64,000 nucleotides of DNA. Source: Candidatus Methylomirabilota bacterium. Its GTDB lineage: Bacteria > Methylomirabilota > Methylomirabilia > Rokubacteriales > CSP1-6. Position 1 is the first letter of the stretch. Each line of letters starts with the position of its first letter. Below are positions 52,243-61,528 of this stretch, piece by piece. Where the stretch lies: contig DATBIM010000102.1 in the NCBI GenBank assembly GCA_036556905.1, positions 70,714 to 134,713 of the forward strand, in the 5' to 3' direction. The translations under genes were made by a program, and so were the position numbers. The notes under the pieces are model-generated. The model was not told where the DNA came from. It saw only the letters and a program-made list of their open reading frames with translations, and did not search any database.

Positions 52243-55218
52243 TCAGCGTACCCGGTAGGACTGGACCAGCCGGTTGCCGGCGCGATCGATCTCGACGACG
52301 ACGGTGGCCCGGTCAGGATCGCGCTGCAGCGGGATCAGCACTGCCAGCAGGCCCGAGGGCGGATGGTCGTCGATCCTGACGATCATGTCGCCGGCCTGAA
52401 TGCCGAGCCGGCCGGCCAGGCGGGGATCCGTCACCGCGAAGCCCTCCGCGCTGAGGACGCCCTCGATCAGGTTCGACGTCACCTGCCAGCGCCGGGCGGC
52501 GCGTGGAGCCAGCGGATTGAGCAGCGTGACCGAAGGCCCGTCCCCGGCCAGCGCGGCAAGATCCCGGACCGCCGGCGGGGGATCGGCGGCCAGCGGGCCG
52601 GGCGCGGCGCCACGGGCGGCGCGCTGATCGATCTGCCGGGTAACACCCGGCCGGGTAACACCCGCGGCCACGTCCTGGGCGCCGCCGCGCCCGACGACTG
52701 GCTTCTCGGCTGACGATGACTCATGTCCCCGTGGTCGGTCTCCGCCGGTTCGTCCGAGGATGAGCGCACCGGCGATGAGCATGCCCCCGGCCAGTCCCAG
52801 GATGATCATGGTCGTCCTGATTCGCCGCGGCCTTCTTGCCGCGTTCGCTCCCAGCCCCACGATCGCGACGAGACCGGCGGCAGCCAGGGCCACGGCGACG
52901 AAGGGACGGTCCAGCGCGAAGCCGGCGCCATGGGCGACCGGGCGGAGCACGCCACGGACGGCGGCGGCCAGGACCGGCTCGTTCCTGACCGCGCGTGCGA
53001 AGGGCGGACTGAGCGTGTAGTAGGCGCGGACGAGCAGTCGACCCACGGGGGTGGTCCGGAGCGCCTGATCGCGGAACCGACGGAGCGTCCGGACCTCGAC
53101 GGTCAACCGCGAGCCGAAGGCCGCGGTGGCGATCACGCAGTCATCGTCGGCGTCGTCTTCTACCGGGACGGGGGCGATCAGATCGGCGAGCTTGACCACG
53201 AAGCCGTCTTCCCCGCCCTGGTTGGTCCTCTGAAAGGCGCCGGGCGTGGCGGGGAAGTCGGTGGCCAGGGTGAAGCCGGCCACCCACACGGCGCCGAGGG
53301 TCGCAGTGATGGCCTGACCGAAGTCCTGTCCGGCCGCCAGGTTGCCCGTTCCTCCGAATCTGATGATGTCCAGGCTGATGCCGTTCACGCCGCTGCGCTT
53401 GTTGACGACGACGTCCACATGGGACTGCGGGCATCCCGGAGGGAGGAGCGAGGGGTCGGTGCAGACCAGTTGATTGGCCACGAGCTGGACATCGCCGACG
53501 GCGTCGACCGCGACCGCCGTCGGGACGGCGCTGCTCGTGCTTCGCGACCAGGCGATGAGGCTGCCCGTCGCGTCGAGCCTGGTGACGAAACCCTCGGTGA
53601 GGCCGGTGAACACGTCACCACCGGTCGCGGGAAAGTTCGCCGACGTCGTGCTGCCCACGACGTGCGGACTTCCCGCCGTGTTGACGGCGATCCCGTTGCC
53701 GATGTCGGCGCCGGCCCCCCCGAGGAAGGTGGACCAGCCGAGGCTGGCGTCGGCGTTCACCCGAGCCACGAAGGCCTCGACCCCGAGCCCGGGCAGGGGC
53801 TGCAGGCTTCCGGCTGTCGTCGGGAAGTCCGCCGACAGGGTGAAGCCGGTCACGTAGGCCCGGCCGCTGCCGTCGAGCGCGATGGCGTTGGCGGTATCAT
53901 CGTTGTTGCCACCGAGAAAGGTCGAGTACTCGAGGACAGTGCCCAGGGCGCTCAGCCGGGTCACGAAGGCGTCGCGGCAATCGACGGGCGGATTCCCGCA
54001 CGTCCCGCCGCCCAGATCAGGCTGCAACGCACTGGCGATGGGGAAGTCGATGGACCTGGTGCCCCCGGCCACGTGAGCCCGGCCACTGCTATCGACGGCG
54101 ATCCCGAACGCGGTGTCGAGTCCGGAACCGCCCAGGAAGGTGGAGTACGCGATCACCCCGTTGGGATCGAGCTTGACGACGAAGGCGTCGAAGTCGCCCT
54201 GGGGCAGCGCCTGGAAGCCGGCCGGGGTGGTCGGGAAGTCCGCCGAGTCGGTGAACCCGGCCAGGTAGGCGTTGTTGTTGGCGTCCACGTCGATGGCCCG
54301 GCCGCCGTCGGTGCCCGATCCGCCGATGTACGCCGAGTAGAGCAGGACCTGCCCGTTGGCGTCGAGCTTGCTCACGAACGCATCGAACCCGCCGGCCAGC
54401 GCGGTGGTGCCAATCTCCGGAAAATTGAGCGACGCCGTGTCGCCGGTCACGTAGACATTGCCCCCGACGTCCACGGCCACGCCGAAGGCCTGGTCGTCGC
54501 CGCTGCCCCCGAGATGCGTCGCCCACGCGATGACGGGATCGATCACCAGCGGGTGCGAGCGATCATGTGGCCCCAGCGCGAAGCCGGCTTGCGCCGGTCC
54601 GCGCACGACCCACGCCACCGGGATCTCACGCCGTGCCCGGTCGATCACCTGGTAAGCAACTGGCCGGCTGAGTCGCAGCGGGGGCCCGCCCGTGGTCAGA
54701 ACCAGATCACCGGCGCCGTCCACGGCAGCGTCCCGGATGCCCTCGAATCCCAGCGCGATAGCCCCGGGGTCAGCACCAGGCCGGATGACGAACTCCTGCT
54801 CGATCCGCGATCCGGCGTGGGCCCTGTAGATGGCGTCGATTCCGGAATAGGCATTCCGATAGACGACGCCGTCGTAGGTCGGCACGTTCGTGTACCAATT
54901 CGCGGGGTTCCGCCCGAGGAAGTAATGCGTCCGGCCTGGCAGTGGCCGGAGGCCGATGATCTCGGAGTCCTGATGCGCTCCCAGGAGGCGAAGCTGAACC
55001 CTCTGGCCGGCGCGCCGGTCGGCCAGGATCACTCCGGACTGGGTGACGAAGAGCGCGTAGCCGGGACCGCGTGAGAGAAACTTTACGCGGGCGTCGGCCT
55101 GCCCGCGATTGGGCTCGAAGACGACTGGCAGGGGAGGGCCGGCGCTACCGGCGGCGGGAGCCGCGAGCACCGCAACCGCCAGTCCCACAGCGAGGCAGGT
55201 CCCTCGCATCGGCGCCAT
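52243..55218 (-). CDS. large secreted SBBP (beta-propeller repeat) protein with C-terminal hydrophobic anchor and PDZ-like domain (paralogue 1)
   Basis: Signal peptide; N-terminal 'VVFEPNRGQADARVKFLSRGPGYALFVTQ'; 'GGSGxDxAxGIAVDxxGNxYVxGxTxSxDFP' repeated >8 times; 'CVIATAAFGSRLTVEVRTLRRFRD' plus 2 TM; C-terminal 'GIQAGDMIVRIDD' PDZ-like. Confidence 0.65.
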   Translation of the reverse strand: MAPMRGTCLAVGLAVAVLAAPAAGSAGPPLPVVFEPNRGQADARVKFLSRGPGYALFVTQSGVILADRRAGQRVQLRLLGAHQDSEIIGLRPLPGRTHYFLGRNPANWYTNVPTYDGVVYRNAYSGIDAIYRAHAGSRIEQEFVIRPGADPGAIALGFEGIRDAAVDGAGDLVLTTGGPPLRLSRPVAYQVIDRARREIPVAWVVRGPAQAGFALGPHDRSHPLVIDPVIAWATHLGGSGDDQAFGVAVDVGGNVYVTGDTASLNFPEIGTTALAGGFDAFVSKLDANGQVLLYSAYIGGSGTDGGRAIDVDANNNAYLAGFTDSADFPTTPAGFQALPQGDFDAFVVKLDPNGVIAYSTFLGGSGLDTAFGIAVDSSGRAHVAGGTRSIDFPIASALQPDLGGGTCGNPPVDCRDAFVTRLSALGTVLEYSTFLGGNNDDTANAIALDGSGRAYVTGFTLSADFPTTAGSLQPLPGLGVEAFVARVNADASLGWSTFLGGAGADIGNGIAVNTAGSPHVVGSTTSANFPATGGDVFTGLTEGFVTRLDATGSLIAWSRSTSSAVPTAVAVDAVGDVQLVANQLVCTDPSLLPPGCPQSHVDVVVNKRSGVNGISLDIIRFGGTGNLAAGQDFGQAITATLGAVWVAGFTLATDFPATPGAFQRTNQGGEDGFVVKLADLIAPVPVEDDADDDCVIATAAFGSRLTVEVRTLRRFRDQALRTTPVGRLLVRAYYTLSPPFARAVRNEPVLAAAVRGVLRPVAHGAGFALDRPFVAVALAAAGLVAIVGLGANAARRPRRIRTTMIILGLAGGMLIAGALILGRTGGDRPRGHESSSAEKPVVGRGGAQDVAAGVTRPGVTRQIDQRAARGAAPGPLAADPPPAVRDLAALAGDGPSVTLLNPLAPRAARRWQVTSNLIEGVLSAEGFAVTDPRLAGRLGIQAGDMIVRIDDHPPSGLLAVLIPLQRDPDRATVVVEIDRAGNRLVQSYRVR

Positions 55219-55273
55219 CCTACGGGCAGGAATCTCCGACGTCCAGAGCAGATTGAGAGCGCCGGCCCTGTGC

Positions 55274-55519
55274 TCAGGATCGGGCTCGCTCCTCGGGGTT
55301 CCGATCCACGATGCACAGACGACAGATCCGGTCGTCGAGGTCGGCGCTCAGCCGGTGCAACAGCGACCGGGGGACCTTGAGGAGCGCCTCCACCTCGTAG
55401 GCCAGCAGGTCGAGCCCCGCGATCACGCTGGCCCGCCAGGGATCGAGGAAAAAGTCGGTTCTGAACGCCTCGTCCGTGACCATCTTGCCGAGCGCCCGCT
55501 CCACCGATCTCTGGCTCAT
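55274..55519 (-). CDS. small conserved-looking helical protein (81 aa), possible sigma54-dependent target; weak likeness to NHLP/Nif11-type leader regions
   Basis: GAGGAGG-5nt-ATG; 'ALGKMVTDEAFRTDFFLDPWRASVIAGLDL'; C-terminal 'ICRLCIV'; track ORF is extended upstream to 55579 by an in-frame ATG. Confidence 0.5.
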   Translation of the reverse strand: MSQRSVERALGKMVTDEAFRTDFFLDPWRASVIAGLDLLAYEVEALLKVPRSLLHRLSADLDDRICRLCIVDRNPEERARS

Positions 55520-55544
55520 CCTGTCCTCCTCGCTCCCAGGAGAG

Positions 55545-55560
55545 AGCAAGAGGCACGCCG
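55545..55560 (-). promoter_or_regulatory. candidate sigma54 (-24/-12) promoter CGGCGTG-N4-TTGCT
   Basis: GG-N10-GC spacing; 9 of 12 consensus positions (TGGCACG-N4-TTGCW); -12 GC ~20 nt upstream of the SD and ~30 nt upstream of the ATG; inverted and direct repeats 85-130 nt further upstream. Confidence 0.4.
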
Positions 55561-55696
55561 AATGAGTGGTGTCGTGCAAGTGGCTGAGACGGTGACGATG
55601 GTGACATGGCGAACCGCCGCGTCGATCGGAGGCTGTCGGGGTTGCCGCAGTGGCGCTGCGGATCCTGCTACAGACTGTCGAGAAATCTACAGCCGC

Positions 55697-57817
55697 TCAG
55701 GCGCCGTCCAGGCCGAAGCGTTTGAGGCGCGTGTAGAGCTGAGAGCGGGTCAGCCCCAACAGCCTGGCCGCGCGGGACTTGTTGCCCCGCGCCTTCTGCA
55801 TCGCGTCGGCGACGATCTGCCGCTCCGCCTCGGCCAGGGGAGTCACCGGCGCGTCCGCGGCCGGCGGGGCGGTCTCATCGCTTCGGACCTCCCGGCGCGG
55901 CGTGATGCCCAGCTGGGCCGCGGTGATGAGACTGCCATCGGACAGGATCAGCGCCCTCTCCACGGCGTTCTGCAGCTCCCGGATGTTGCCCGGCCAGCTG
56001 TGGGCGATCAGCGCCTCGCGGGCGTCACGGCTCAGCCCGGGCTCCCCCTTGCCCATCCGCGCGCCGAGCGTGTGCACGAAGTGGTCGGCCAGGAGCAGCA
56101 CGTCGTCGCCGCGCTCGCGCAGCGGGGGCAGGTGAACGGCGAAGACGTTGAGCCGATAGAAGAGATCCTCGCGGAAGCGGCCGTCCGCCACCGCCTGCTC
56201 CAGATCCCGGTTGGTGGCCGCCACGATGCGGACATCGGCCTTCAGCGTCGCGGTGCCGCCCACGCGCTGGAACTCGCGCTCCTGCAGCACGCGGAGCAGC
56301 TTGGCCTGCACGGGCGGGGTGAGCTCGGCGACCTCGTCGAGGAAGAGCGTGCCTCCCGCGGCCAGCTCGAAGCGCCCCGGCTTCTGGCGGTCGGCTCCCG
56401 TGAAGGCCCCGCGCTCGTGGCCAAACAGCTCCGACTCCAGCAGGGCCTCGGGCAGCGCCGCGCAGTTGACGGCGACGAACGGCCCGTCGGCGCGGACGCT
56501 GGCGTAGTGGATGGCGCGCGCCACGATCTCCTTGCCCGTGCCGCTCTCGCCGGTGAGCAACACCGTGGTCTCGGCGGGCGCCACCTTGGCCGCGCGCGAG
56601 AGGGCCTCGCGGACGGCCGGGGAGCGGCCGATGATCTGATCGAAGCCGTACTGCTGGCCCAGGGATTCCCGTAGCGAGGCCAATCGCTCCTCCAGCTGGC
56701 GGGCCCGACCCTCGGCGGCGGCCAGGCGCCGCTGCTCGTCGCCCAGGCGCTGGTGCTGCAGGGCCAGAACCACGGACTCCGCGACGTGCTCGGCGATCTC
56801 TACGTCGGCCCCGTCGAACCAGTATGGACGTCGCTTGCCGAAGTACAGCGCGCCGCCGACCACCCCACCACGGTGAAGGGCCACGCCGAGGGCCGAGCGC
56901 CCGCCGTCGTCCAGCATGAGGCGGTCCCCCGGGCTCTTGGGATCGAGCTCGACGAGCGCATCGCGAACCAGGATGGGCTGGCCCGCGCGCATTTTCTCGG
57001 CGAAGGAGAAGCTCTCGAGATCCATCCTCCAGGGCGCCGGCTCGGCCGGCGGCGCGCTGTCCACCTCGACGAGCTTCTCCAGCTCGCGCCCGCTGGAGGA
57101 GAGCAGGCAGATCCCCATCACGTCGAAGTCGAGGACCGGCTTCACCACCTCGGCGAGCCGGTCGAAGACGTCCTTGACGTCCAGGCTCGTGGCCAGCGCC
57201 GGGCCCAGCGCGGCCAGGCCGTGCAGGCGGCGCAGCCGACGTCGCTCCCGTTGCAGCAGCACGGTGCTCTGAATGAAGGGCGCGATGAGATCGGCGACCT
57301 GCCGGCCCGTGGCCAGGTGCTGGTCGGTGTAGGCGCCGGCGGTCAGGCTGCTGGCGGCCAGGCAGCCCACCACCCGGCCCCCGCTGTACAGGGGGAGGAG
57401 CAGGGCCGCGCGAAATCCCGCCTGGCGGACCCGATGCTCGATCGCGCCTTCGCGGGCGACGCGATCGTCGGCGCGAAGATCATCGACGCGGAGCGCCTCG
57501 CCGTCGAACACGGACCGAAGCCCCCAGTCGCCGACCCGATAGCGGCCCTCCGGCGAGAAGCCGGTGGTGTAGTGCCGGGCGTGCAGCACCGGCCCGTTCT
57601 TGGCGTGCTCGGCGAAGATGCTGAAGGTCCGGCGGTCGTCGTCGAGGTAGGCGATCACCAGCCGGTCGTGGGGGATGAGCCGCTCGAGCTTGGCCGAGAA
57701 ATCGGCGAGAAAGCGTTGGGGATCGAACTCGTCCTGCATGGAACGGCCGATGGCCGCCAGGCATTCGACCAGGTCGGCCAGCGCCGTATCGTCGGCCACG
57801 GTCGTCATGGCCCCCAA
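55697..57817 (-). CDS. sigma54-dependent Fis-family transcriptional activator (GAF-GAF-AAA+-HTH enhancer-binding protein)
   Basis: Two GAF domains; '[11 protein letters not shown]' Walker A; 'GAFTGA' sigma54-contact motif; 'RELQN'; C-terminal Fis HTH '[25 protein letters not shown]'. Confidence 0.85.
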
Positions 57818-57856: not shown

Positions 57857-60800
57857 TCAGCGTACGCGATACGAGTGCACGAGCCGCGTCCCACCGCGGT
57901 CGATCTCCACGAGCACCGTCGCGCGGTCGGGATCGCGCTGGACCGCGCTCAGCACGGCGAGCAGGCCGCGCGGTGGACGCCCGCCGACGCTGACGATGGT
58001 GTCGCCGGCCTCGATGCCGAGCCCGCGGGTCAGGCGGGGATCGGTCACCACGAAGCCGTCCGCGCCGAGGACACCCTCGATCAGATCTGACCTCACCGCC
58101 CAGCGGCGGGCGTCGCGTGAAGCCAGTGGATTGATCAACCGCACCGATCCCTCCCGGCTTGTGAGGTCGCGCAGGAGGTCCCGCGTTGCTGGCGCTGGGG
58201 GTGTGGTGAGCGGCCTGGGGCCAGGCCCGCTCTCCGCACGCCGGGCCGTCGGCGTGGGCCGGGTGGATGGAGCCGGGGCGGCGAGTATCTCACTCACGCC
58301 AGGCTCCGGCCGGGCTTCCCGCGCCGCGGCTGGTGAGGGCGCTGGCAATTGCCCGGGCCCCGCCGGCATCCGCTCCGGCCGGGCCAGAGCCAGCACAATG
58401 ACGAGCAGCACTGCTCCGACGATGAGGCAGGCGAGCGTCACACCCAGGACCGGCCTCGTTTTCCTTCGCGTCACCATCCCCAGCGCCAGCATCATTGCCA
58501 GCCCAATTGCCGTGAGCGCGATGGTCACGAAGGGCCTCTCGACAACAACGCCGACACCGAGGGCGACCGGGCGAAGCAGGCCGCGGACAACGGCGGCCAG
58601 CCGTGGGTTCCTCGCGACCGTGCGCGCCAGTGGCGGGCTCAGCCGGTAATAGGCGCGGACGAGCGCACGGCCGGCCGGGTGGGTCATCAGCACACGATCA
58701 CGGAACTGCCGGAGGGTCTGGACCTCGGGAGCCAGCGGTGAGCCGAAGGCAGCGGTGGCGATTAGGCAGCCGCCAACGCCTCCTTCCGGAAAAAATCCTC
58801 CCTCCGGAGGGCCACTGGGAGGGTTCGTGGCGATCGGATCGATCGGGTCCATCAGCTTGACCACGAAAGCGTCGGCTCCACCCTGGTGGGCCGGCTGCAC
58901 GGCGCCGGGTGTCGTGGGGAAGTCAGCCGCGCGGGTGAAACCCGCCACCCAGAAAGAAACGACCCCGCGGGTGACGATGGCCTGGCCGAAGTCCTGGCCG
59001 GCCGCCAGGTTGCTTCGTCCCCCGAACGTGATGATGTCGAGCCGGTGGCCGTCGCCGCCGCTGCGCTTGTCGACGACGACGTCGACGTGGGATTCTGCGC
59101 ATCCCGGAGGGATGGTGGGCATCGTGCAGACGAGGGTGTTGGCGACGAGACGAACATCGGCGAAGTTGTTGAGGGCGACCGCCGTCGGCACGGCGCTGCC
59201 GGTGCTCCGGGACCAGAGGACAGCGCTGCCTGCCGCGTCGAGCTTCGTCACGAAACCATCGGTAGCGCCGATGAACGAATCTCCCCCGGTGGCCGGGAAG
59301 TTCGCCGAGGCCGTGCTCCCGACCACATGAGAATGTCCCGCCGTGTCGACCGCGATGCCGTTGGCAGTATCCGAGCCGCTGCCGCCCAGGTACGTCGACC
59401 AGCCGAGACTGCCGTCGGCGTCCACCCTCGCGACGAAGGCGTCGAGCCCACCGCGTGGAGTGGGCAGCAGGCTCTCGAGGGTCGTCGGGAAGTTCCCCGA
59501 CAGGGTGAAGCCGGTGAGGTACGCATTGACGTTACGGTCCAGGGCGATGCCGTTGGCAGCGTCGTCGTCGCTGCCACCGAGGAAGGTCGAATACTCGAGG
59601 TCGGTCCCAAGGGGATTCAGCCGAGCCACGAAGGCGTCGCGGCAGGGGAAGGTGTCCGGCGCGATCCCGCAGGTGCCGCCGCCCGGTGTCGGCTGGAGCG
59701 CATTGCTGATGGGAAACTCGCTGGACCGGGTGCCACCGGCCACGTGGGCGCGGCCGTTGACATCCACGGCGATCCCGAGCGCTGTGTCGCTTTCAGCCCC
59801 ACCCAGGTAGGTGGAGTAGAGGATGGCGCCGGTGGGGTCGAGCTTGACGACGAAGCCGTCGAGGCCTCCCCCGTGGACCGGCTGGACGGTGCCGGCCGTG
59901 GTGGGGAAGTCAGGAGAGTCGGTGAATCCCGCTAGATAGACATTTGCCGCTGAATCCGCGGCGATGGCCCGGGCTCCGTCGGTGCCGCTGCCGCCGATAT
60001 AGGCGGAGTAGATGAGGCTCTGGCCGTTAGCATCGATCTTGGTCACGAAGGCGTCGGTCCCTACCGGGAGGCCAGAAGCATCTGGGAAGTCAGGCGACGT
60101 CGTGTCGCCGGTCACAACGACGTTGCCGACGGCGTCCAGGGCGACGCCGAAGGCCTGGTCGTCACCGGTGCCACCCAGGAGCGTCGCCCAGGTGATGACA
60201 GGATCGATCACCAGCGGAAGCGAGCGGTCGTAGCGGCCGAGCCAGAACCCTACCTCCCTCGGCCCACGAACTATCCACGCGGCCTGAATCCCACGGTGGT
60301 GCCCGTCGATCACCTGGTGGGCCACTGGCCGGCTGAGCCGCACCTCGCTCTTCGTTGTGGCCAGCACGAGGTCGCCGGCGCCGTCCACGCTCGCCGCCTG
60401 GACCCCATCGAGCTCCAGCCTGATCGCGTCGGGATCAGCGCCAGGCTGGACCAGGAAGTCCTGCTCGATGCGCAGCGCGGCGTCAGCCCTGTAGACCGCG
60501 TCGATCCCCGGGTAGACCTCCCGGTACGCGACCCGCGCATACGTGGGCACATTCGTCCGCCAGTGCAGGGGATTCTGCCCGATGAAGTAGTGAATCCGCC
60601 CCGGCAGGGGCTCGAGACCGACCACCTCGGGTTCCTCTCGCGCCCCGACGAGACGCAGCCGCACCCGTTCGCCGGTGCGACGATCGGCGAGCATCGTCTC
60701 GGCGGCCGTGATGAAGAGCGTGAAGCCCGGCCCGCGCGACAGGAACTTCACCTGGGCATCCACCTGTCCACGGTTGGCTTCGAAGACGACCGGCCCGCGC

Positions 60801-60877
60801 GCCCCGGCGGCGCCGGGCACGAAAACCATGAAAAGCGCCGCAGCCACACCCGTGCCGATCCATGTCGCTCGTGGCAT
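57857..60877 (-). CDS. large secreted SBBP beta-propeller protein with C-terminal anchor and PDZ-like domain (paralogue 2)
   Basis: Start at MPRATW after AGGAGG-6nt; same architecture as paralogue 1 ('VVFEANRGQVDAQVKFLSRGPGFTLFIT', SBBP repeats, 'CLIATAAFGSPLAPEVQTLRQFRD', TM, C-terminal 'GIEAGDTIVSVGG'). Confidence 0.65.
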   Translation of the reverse strand: MPRATWIGTGVAAALFMVFVPGAAGARGPVVFEANRGQVDAQVKFLSRGPGFTLFITAAETMLADRRTGERVRLRLVGAREEPEVVGLEPLPGRIHYFIGQNPLHWRTNVPTYARVAYREVYPGIDAVYRADAALRIEQDFLVQPGADPDAIRLELDGVQAASVDGAGDLVLATTKSEVRLSRPVAHQVIDGHHRGIQAAWIVRGPREVGFWLGRYDRSLPLVIDPVITWATLLGGTGDDQAFGVALDAVGNVVVTGDTTSPDFPDASGLPVGTDAFVTKIDANGQSLIYSAYIGGSGTDGARAIAADSAANVYLAGFTDSPDFPTTAGTVQPVHGGGLDGFVVKLDPTGAILYSTYLGGAESDTALGIAVDVNGRAHVAGGTRSSEFPISNALQPTPGGGTCGIAPDTFPCRDAFVARLNPLGTDLEYSTFLGGSDDDAANGIALDRNVNAYLTGFTLSGNFPTTLESLLPTPRGGLDAFVARVDADGSLGWSTYLGGSGSDTANGIAVDTAGHSHVVGSTASANFPATGGDSFIGATDGFVTKLDAAGSAVLWSRSTGSAVPTAVALNNFADVRLVANTLVCTMPTIPPGCAESHVDVVVDKRSGGDGHRLDIITFGGRSNLAAGQDFGQAIVTRGVVSFWVAGFTRAADFPTTPGAVQPAHQGGADAFVVKLMDPIDPIATNPPSGPPEGGFFPEGGVGGCLIATAAFGSPLAPEVQTLRQFRDRVLMTHPAGRALVRAYYRLSPPLARTVARNPRLAAVVRGLLRPVALGVGVVVERPFVTIALTAIGLAMMLALGMVTRRKTRPVLGVTLACLIVGAVLLVIVLALARPERMPAGPGQLPAPSPAAAREARPEPGVSEILAAPAPSTRPTPTARRAESGPGPRPLTTPPAPATRDLLRDLTSREGSVRLINPLASRDARRWAVRSDLIEGVLGADGFVVTDPRLTRGLGIEAGDTIVSVGGRPPRGLLAVLSAVQRDPDRATVLVEIDRGGTRLVHSYRVR

Positions 60878-61296
60878 CGTCGACCTCCTGGGGAGGCGTT
60901 CGCGATGCCGGCGCATGGAGCAACTCCCGCGCCACCCAGGAACGACGAGGCCATCCGGCCAGATGCTGAAGGCTACTTATCGGTGATTGTTGCAAAGTCG
61001 CCACGTGTGGACCGTCCAGCCGCCGCTGATGTGGTTCTCTGCGCGGCCAGTGGCCGGCGAATCTCCGACAGCGAATCTGTCGAACCACGGTGCTGCGGGC
61101 ACCTTGGCGTGTCCCGGGCCCGGGGCTATGGCGATACCTGCTGGGGGTTGCCGAGCGCAAGGCCGTTCCCAATGGCACTCGCCTGGCTGTGGGTGCAGTG
61201 CTGGCGCAGGCATTCACGAGATTTTGAGGGTTCCGGACGCCGGCTTTACGCGCCGTTGACGTCGCGCGCGCTACAACAAGTCTGGAGGAGGGCCAG

Positions 61297-61464
61297 ATGG
61301 GCAAGAAGCCGGCCGAGCGAACAGTGACGACAGCAGCGAGGAACACCCTCGGGTTCGAGGCGACCGTTCCCTGCGGCTGCTGCGGCGCCCCGTCGCGGCG
61401 TTCCCAGAAGCAGTTCCGGGTGTGCGTGAACGGGCATACCTTCACCAAGAAGAGCGACCAGTGA
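61297..61464 (+). CDS. small Cys-rich (zinc-ribbon-like) protein, 55 aa, not in the ORF track
   Basis: GGAGGAGGG-5nt-ATG; MGKKPAERTVTTAARNTLGFEATVPCGCCGAPSRRSQKQFRVCVNGHTFTKKSDQ; 64 nt upstream of map. Confidence 0.4.
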   Translation: MGKKPAERTVTTAARNTLGFEATVPCGCCGAPSRRSQKQFRVCVNGHTFTKKSDQ

Positions 61465-61528
61465 CGATGGTCCGTCCGCGCGGCGCCTGCCGGAAGCCAG
61501 GCGCCGCGCGGACGGGCTCGAGTCAGCG

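Follow-up and report, generated by a model that had tools for sequence, protein, structure and literature searches.

Cross-locus conservation points to a NifA-type sigma-54 control region upstream of an Os1348-family small gene in Rokubacteria/Methylomirabilota

Introduction

In the psp system of Escherichia coli, the gene of the activator PspF adjoins its target promoter, which carries several upstream sites and a site for the integration host factor (IHF). The first regulated product of the psp operon is a small protein, and pspF lies divergent from pspA. This work concerns the 177-nt gap between a gene for a sigma-54 activator (enhancer-binding protein, EBP) and an 81-aa small open reading frame (ORF) on the minus strand of a Candidatus Methylomirabilota contig (DATBIM010000102.1). 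The window, i.e. the whole stretch of DNA that was analyzed, comprises 64 kb (64,000 nt) with a GC content of ~70%. Among the described activators, NifA offers the closest comparison for the layout of this gap. Its recognition sequence is TGT-N10-ACA, located 100 bp or more upstream of the start of transcription (PMC2820453), and activation by NifA depends on IHF (PMC6296734).

The prototype of the small protein is Os1348 of Pseudomonas sp. Os17. In the OS3 cluster of this strain, Os1348-Os1351 are located upstream of the efflux genes Os1352-1355 (PMC7726476). There, the small gene is followed by genes for an acetyltransferase, a peptidase, and a SagB-type dehydrogenase, the expression is reported to be GacA-dependent, and the paper describing the cluster makes no mention of sigma-54 or an EBP (PMC7726476).

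On the minus strand of the window, the EBP gene (55697..57817, stop codon TGA at 55699-55697, likely start at the ATG at 57808) is followed by the 177-nt gap, the small ORF (ATG at 55519, end at 55274), a further gap of 55 nt, and the gene of SBBP paralogue 1 (SBBP1, 52243..55218). Judged by comparison with related loci, the 177-nt gap is predicted, with a probability of roughly 85%, to be a complete sigma-54 control region with a layout as known for NifA-type activators. The mechanism that this implies would be an ordinary one, and the control region appears well supported by the cross-locus comparison. The original prediction, made from the window alone, had proposed that the small ORF is expressed from a sigma-54 promoter and that the adjacent activator regulates it through enhancer sites 85-130 nt further upstream, a proposal that the related loci support; every motif that it listed was found in its place when the sequence was re-read. 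Searches of the literature on Os1348 and sigma-54, on Rokubacteria and sigma-54, and on Franean1_4349 revealed no earlier description of this control region. For the uncultured phylum Rokubacteria/Methylomirabilota, a concrete regulatory map is thus proposed that consists of an activator, a probable operator, a bend site, and a sigma-54 promoter.

Conservation of the predicted sigma-54 promoter element

The predicted -24/-12 element CGGCGTGcctcTTGCT is located on the minus strand at 55560-55545, with the GG at 55559-55558 and the GC at 55547-55546. As had been claimed, the minus-strand sequence CGGCGTGCCTCTTGCT at this position shows exact GG-N10-GC spacing and agrees with nine of the 12 positions of the consensus TGGCACG-N4-TTGCW. 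The distance from the end of the motif to the ATG of the small ORF is 25 nt.

For the comparative analysis, 34 homologues of the small ORF were aligned, and 86 related loci were fetched from genome and metagenome collections; the non-redundant set consists of 51 loci from Rokubacteria/Methylomirabilota metagenomes, the homologues being annotated as Candidatus Rokuibacteriota or Methylomirabilota. The near-identical contigs L001-L008 were rejected as comparison set, since they show too little divergence to be informative, and the wider set of homologous loci was gathered for this reason.

Across the loci, the best GG-N10-GC motif within 260 nt upstream of the small ORF is mostly found 22-50 nt before the start codon. 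In the clade of the window, it has the form CGGC-N8-TTGCT and precedes the ATG by 22-27 nt. More distant clades harbor near-canonical versions, namely TGGCCCGCCTGTTGCT at 37 nt, TGGCAC-N5-CTGCA at 44-50 nt, and, as another near-canonical form, TGGCACGGTCAGTGCT. A site of at least 8 bits between -76 and -10 is present in 37 of the 51 non-redundant loci vs. 1.7% of the controls, which were 9,038 windows taken from the same loci (binomial P ~6e-54). When the 11 closest loci were aligned with MAFFT, the columns without variation comprised the half-sites of the upstream activating sequences (UAS, see below), the start codon, and the blocks CGGC and TTGC, which stand out as identical stretches in an intergenic alignment that has otherwise diverged. 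When a position weight matrix (PWM) built from the promoters of 37 other loci, with the window and locus L009 excluded, was applied to the window, the site scored highest in the 64 kb with 20.3 bits, followed by a site with 15.1 bits, and the maximum in 20 shuffled sequences was 17.3 bits.

From the usual sigma-54 geometry, the transcription start is predicted 12 nt downstream of C(-12), at ~55534 (55532..55536). The Shine-Dalgarno sequence GAGGAGG (55531-55525) is located 5 nt before the ATG. Its distance from C(-12) is 15 nt and not ~20 nt as originally estimated.

Predicted tandem activator sites upstream of the promoter

Between the EBP stop codon and the promoter, three tandem sites of 16 bp are predicted that resemble TGT-N10-ACA (minus-strand reading). 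S1 (TGTAGATTTCTCGACA, 55691-55676) is an exact copy. S2 (TGTAGCAGGATCCGCA, 55672-55657) reads TGT-N10-GCA and starts 19 bp after S1, and S3 (TGCGGCAACCCCGACA, 55649-55634), the weakest of the three, reads TGC-N10-ACA and starts 23 bp after S2, so that S2 and S3 each deviate from TGT-N10-ACA by one mismatch. The 5' ends of S1, S2, and S3 lie about 131, 112, and 89 nt upstream of T(-26), the first position of the promoter element, and their predicted centers at about -149, -130, and -107 relative to the start.

At this location, the original prediction had described an inverted repeat, CCGCAG-N5-CTGCGG (55661-55645 in minus reading), and a direct repeat, CTGTAG (CTACAG on the plus strand), with copies at 55692-55687 and 55673-55668 and the palindrome ACAGTCTGT (plus strand ACAGACTGT) between them. 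The presence of these repeats and their position upstream of the promoter were upheld, and they are above chance, unlike the -24/-12 match taken alone. Their anatomy was not: instead of a hairpin, a direct repeat, and a palindrome, the three features resolve into S1-S3. The CTGTAG repeat corresponds to the left halves of S1 and S2, the palindrome ACAGTCTGT to the S1/S2 junction, and CCGCAG..CTGCGG to the right half of S2 joined with the left half of S3.

S1 is the only exact TGT-N10-ACA in the 64 kb vs. 3.8 expected for the whole window. A symmetrized UAS PWM, built from the other loci with the window left out, gave S1 25.1 bits, the best match in the 64 kb; the next match reached 10.0 bits, and the maximum in 20 shuffled sequences was 16.5 bits. 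S2 ranks third in the window with 9.8 bits, and S3, with 6.7 bits, is within the background when scored alone. Related loci show the same arrangement. At least one site with at most one mismatch is located upstream of the promoter in 34 of 36 loci vs. 13% of the controls, an exact site in 13 of the 36 vs. 1%, and pairs of sites spaced 18-20 bp apart in 18 of the 36 vs. 0.2%. Most loci with an adjacent EBP gene harbor two or three tandem 16-bp sites that start just after the EBP stop codon, and the site positions cluster 130-135, 110-116, and 88-92 nt upstream of T(-26). The site homologous to S1 is found at 128-136 nt in the relatives, and 14 other loci also have a third site, 85-93 nt upstream of T(-26). 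Taken together, these sequences suggest a probable operator of the approximate form TGTAGA-N4-TCNACA in three phased copies.

It was also considered whether CCGCAG-cgcca-CTGCGG (55661-55645) acts at the RNA level, as a terminator or attenuator hairpin of the EBP transcript. The stem consists of six GC-rich base pairs and begins 36 nt downstream of the EBP stop codon, its local fold of -9.2 kcal/mol is the most stable among the compared loci, and GC-rich bacteria sometimes terminate transcription without a U tract. Against this, a T run is missing, the terminator scan of 55200-55800 was negative, the RNA fold of the whole gap does not differ from shuffled sequences (z = -0.17), and Rfam yielded no match for 55150-55850 at E <= 1. 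In 11 other loci with S2 and S3, pairing is confined to the 3-nt half-sites GCA/TGY, with folds of 0 to -6.2 kcal/mol, and the stem extension is absent or different; what the loci conserve is the 16-bp unit TGT-N10-ACA along with the spacing between its copies. Since the stem is not conserved in the relatives, the hairpin reading was rejected as highly improbable, and a pair of binding sites is taken as the conserved entity.

A putative bend site between the activator sites and the promoter

When the loci were stacked by their promoters, conserved TTTC...TT columns became apparent ~30 nt upstream of position -26 that fit the IHF consensus WATCAANNNNTTR. A match to this consensus with at most two mismatches is present in the segment in 18 of 38 loci, as compared to 1.0% of random windows and 4.3% in the remaining parts of these intergenic regions, and most of these matches start 28-30 nt upstream of T(-26). 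Relatives of lower GC content harbor near-perfect IHF-like sites (TTTCAATGAGTTA, ATTCAATAAGTTA). The copy in the window, TCTCAGCCACTTG (55577..55589 on the minus strand, spanning about -55 to -43), agrees with seven of the nine specified positions; it is degenerate and yet placed at the conserved offset, between the UAS and the promoter. Judged by this placement, the element at 55589-55577 is probably a DNA-bending site. The activator sites lie at least ~100 bp upstream of the predicted start with the IHF-like element in between, which is the geometry of a NifA-type UAS.

Evidence from the window alone

Several observations weigh against the proposed control region. Matches to the -24/-12 consensus with at most three mismatches are no more frequent in the window than in dinucleotide shuffles (69 vs. 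88 +/- 10). A rough sigma-54 PWM gives the site 9.3 bits, which puts it ~23rd among the 30 window sites of at least 9 bits; the frequencies of this matrix follow the Barrios 1999 compilation only roughly, so its absolute bit values are approximate, and the controls were scored alike. At -26, the site carries C where the consensus has T, and at -22/-21 it carries GT where the consensus has AC. Since C(-12) precedes the Shine-Dalgarno sequence by 15 nt, the implied 5' untranslated region measures only ~15 nt, and the Shine-Dalgarno sequence would start ~3 nt from the predicted 5' end of the transcript. Further upstream, S2 (9.8 bits), S3 (6.7 bits), and the IHF-like element (7/9) are weak in the window; these three are credible only because their positions are conserved. 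The binomial P of the cross-locus comparison overstates independence, since the loci share descent.

The short leader is shared by the close clade, in which the motif end precedes the ATG by 22-27 nt, the other clades showing 37-50 nt. Weak -24/-12 matches can still function. The comparison of the PWM score with the background, proposed as a check along with the original prediction, turned out negative at the scale of the window: the match to the extended consensus is no better than background and not above chance when scored alone. Mismatch counts and the rough PWM on the window were consequently rejected as decisive test, as they do not separate the site from the background.

These counts and the rank of the site are in line with the alternative that the -24/-12 match arose by chance in GC-rich DNA and that expression of the small ORF relies on transcripts reading through from the EBP gene or on another, unrecognized kind of promoter. 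Read-through is physically possible, because no terminator was found between the EBP gene and the small ORF, and it may add to the transcript pool. A scan of 55200-55800 detected neither a sigma-70-like promoter nor an intrinsic terminator. Chance, however, does not account for a GG-N10-GC motif that keeps its position in 37 of 51 diverged loci (1.7% in the controls), persists where the intergenic flanks can no longer be aligned, occurs also in loci without an EBP gene immediately upstream, and is accompanied by upstream sites at fixed distances. An origin by chance is therefore regarded as very unlikely. For the sigma-54 promoter, it was the conserved position across loci that appeared decisive, which the PWM on the window alone was not. 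More generally, a 9/12 sigma-54 match alone is uninformative in DNA of 70% GC, and positional conservation across loci decides.

The adjacent activator and the proposed mechanism

The product of the EBP gene shows the domain order GAF-GAF-AAA+-HTH_8. Its Pfam matches comprise Sigma54_activat (4.8e-73), two GAF domains, AAA_lid_14, and HTH_8. The AAA+ core is intact, with a Walker A motif GESGTGK at residue 423, ESELFGH at 461, and GAFTGA at 470. The best NCBIfam match is NifA with 412.8 bits, under the cutoff of 528.85. In the 64-kb window, neither a second EBP nor a second small ORF of this kind was found.

The order of EBP gene and small ORF is kept across loci at 50-95% EBP identity, with intergenic gaps of 170-270 nt in many of them, and the UAS sites start within ~10 nt of the EBP stop codon. 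The recognition part of the EBP varies along with the sites. Within loci L009-L091, activators with the helix-turn-helix (HTH) sequence ...LG(L/I)(T/S)R(S/A)QLYTR... are paired with half-sites TGTAGA, TGTCTA, or TGTTCA, and those with ...LGITRT(K/Q)L(Y/H)TR... with (T/C)GTCCA..TGGAC(A/G); L030 and L056 are exceptions. This co-variation is suggestive of direct recognition and is confounded by phylogeny. On account of the conserved order of EBP gene and small ORF, the location of the sites at the EBP stop codon, and the co-variation of HTH and half-site, the adjacent EBP is the predicted binder of S1-S3.

Promoter and sites could also be genuine and bound by another EBP or by a repressor, in which case the adjacent EBP would not be the direct controller. 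TGT-N10-ACA is a short, generic recognition sequence of Fis-type HTH dimers (PMC6296734), and in some clades the nearest EBP gene is not adjacent and ends 0.9-2 kb upstream. This possibility is considered unlikely in view of the conserved order of EBP, sites, promoter, and small ORF at 50-95% EBP identity, with the sites within ~10 nt of the stop codon, of half-site types that track the HTH sequence, and of the fact that the adjacent EBP is the sole EBP of the 64-kb window.

With the adjacent EBP as activator, the following sequence of events is proposed. Dimers of the GAF-GAF-AAA+-HTH protein would bind S1-S3, strongly at S1 and more weakly at S2 and S3, and assembly of the active oligomer would begin there. 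Gating of the activator by a ligand is presumably the role of the two GAF domains. A bend at the IHF-like element near -49 would bring the activator to the sigma-54 holoenzyme, which is expected to reside in a closed complex at CGGC-N8-TTGC between -26 and -11. ATP hydrolysis, coupled via the GAFTGA loop, would then open the complex. Transcription would start near 55534 and yield an mRNA with a short leader for the 81-aa Os1348-family protein, probably extending into SBBP1.

The small protein and its downstream genes

The small ORF encodes an Os1348-family protein of the NHLP clan, matching NCBIfam NF038399 with 62.3 bits (cutoff 40) and Pfam Frankia_peptide with 1.5e-8. The homologues gathered for it number 35. 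The family profile matches PDB entry 6lk7 at 3.5e-6, which is the crystal structure of Os1348 (PMC7726476). In the alignment of the 34 homologues, the family is conserved through ...LDDRICRL (residues 1-68), followed by a highly variable tail of 5-50 residues. A conserved GG or GA leader-cleavage motif is absent from the family, which is unusual for a typical NHLP-type precursor of a ribosomally synthesized and post-translationally modified peptide (RiPP).

The unit that the loci conserve comprises the activator, the control region, and the Os1348-family small protein. While the first gene is always the small ORF, the genes downstream of it vary among loci. In 30 of the 68 loci with enough sequence, it is directly followed by the adaptor (HlyD_D23/HlyD_3) of a resistance-nodulation-division (RND) system and then by an AcrB-family pump; examples are L009:4243-5264, L015:4243-8231, and L026:5469-8219, with 27 other loci. 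The closest genome relative, L009, with 94% identity in the small ORF and 95% in the EBP, carries such an RND pump downstream, and the start of its membrane fusion protein gene overlaps the stop codon of the small ORF. Other loci encode an extracytoplasmic function (ECF) sigma factor or a DUF1344 protein at this position. In the lineage of the window, the downstream genes are SBBP1 (DUF7948, SBBP repeats, and a CFI-box), an NHL-repeat protein, and a short-chain dehydrogenase/reductase (SDR). SBBP1 as cargo is seen only in the near-identical contigs L001-L008 and in no other relatives. An orthologous RND pump was not found in the window, which contains only an unrelated pump with 27% identity at ~18-21.8 kb.

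Since SBBP1 is on the same strand, separated from the small ORF by only 55 nt, and no terminator was found, the two genes are plausibly, and probably, co-transcribed. The location of SBBP1 behind a conserved control cassette is read as a recent, lineage-specific swap of cargo. Both SBBP paralogues (52243-55218 and 57857-60916, minus strand) carry the CFI-box-CTERM domain internally and not at the C-terminus, at residues 694-761 of 991 in paralogue 1 and 717-784 of 1019 in paralogue 2. In each of them, more than 200 residues follow this domain, with a weak PDZ_6 match in paralogue 2.

Genes for RiPP-type maturation (acetyltransferase, peptidase, SagB dehydrogenase) are absent from the immediate neighbors of the small ORF, in the window as well as in the relatives. 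On a more speculative reading of low confidence, the GAF-GAF EBP, its control region, and the small protein might form a portable cassette in front of swappable cargo. Because the maturation enzymes are missing and the small protein is always the first product, it may, on this reading, not serve as a RiPP precursor here; it could be a partner within the system, e.g. a feedback modulator of the EBP, as PspA is of PspF, or an accessory or signaling part of the pump. The recurrent arrangement hints that Os1348-family small proteins in Rokubacteria/Methylomirabilota are tied to sigma-54-controlled efflux operons, typically as first genes, a sigma-54/EBP-controlled efflux context that is without report for the Pseudomonas prototype.

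Other sigma-54-like sites in the window

The best sigma-54 match of the window is TGGCGCGggagTTGCT (60934-60919, minus strand; one mismatch, 15.2 bits). It is located 42 nt before an ATG at 60876 that is preceded by a Shine-Dalgarno sequence and belongs to SBBP paralogue 2 (SBBP2), the listed ORF start of which, 60916, is probably too early. The EBP gene follows SBBP2 48 nt later, so the EBP would activate its own expression if the promoter at 60934-60919 were EBP-dependent. Two matches to the UAS PWM are located nearby, one at 60985-61006 (10.0 bits, the second-best of the window), 69 nt upstream of the respective T(-26), and a weaker one at 61052-61073 (6.6 bits), 136 nt upstream of the same T(-26); both are within the range of the shuffled sequences.

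A further sigma-54-like site, TGGCACtcgccTGGCT (61173-61188, plus strand, 13.8 bits), points in the opposite direction within the same divergent intergenic region. It is located 108 nt before a Cys-rich ORF of 55 aa (61297-61464, plus strand; MGKKPAERTV...CGCCG...VCVNGH...) with the Shine-Dalgarno sequence GGAGGAGGG. This ORF is followed by a near-perfect inverted repeat of ~20 bp (61470-61517) and then by a gene starting with MIVLKSPSEI, the product of which is presumed to resemble methionine aminopeptidase.

Comparison with known systems

With the OS3 cluster of Pseudomonas sp. Os17, the locus shares the family of the small protein (NF038399, match to PDB 6lk7) and, in most relatives, the location of the small gene directly upstream of efflux transporter genes. 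It differs in that no adjoining modification enzymes were found and in that an EBP/sigma-54 control region precedes the small ORF. In contrast to the divergent genes of the PspF/pspA pair, EBP gene and small ORF are arranged in tandem here. PspF is devoid of a sensory domain, and PspA, a proven anti-activator, has an unrelated fold.

The likeness to NifA and the nif promoters (e.g. that of nifH) extends to both DNA and protein. It encompasses TGT-N10-ACA sites more than 100 bp upstream, an IHF-type element in between, and a GG-N10-GC promoter, together with an activator that has an N-terminal GAF domain, an AAA+ core with GAFTGA, and a C-terminal Fis-type HTH. Unlike NifA, the EBP described here stays below the NCBIfam NifA cutoff (412.8 vs. 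528.85) and harbors two GAF domains. The control region contains three tandem sites with 19- and 22-23-bp spacing, where nif promoters have one or two, and its target is the gene of an Os1348-family small protein, with genes for an efflux pump or a surface-repeat protein behind it. The host belongs to the Rokubacteria/Methylomirabilota, and no nif genes were detected among the neighbors checked around the locus. By analogy of layout, the region is thus predicted to work like a NifA-dependent promoter that stands outside any nif regulon.

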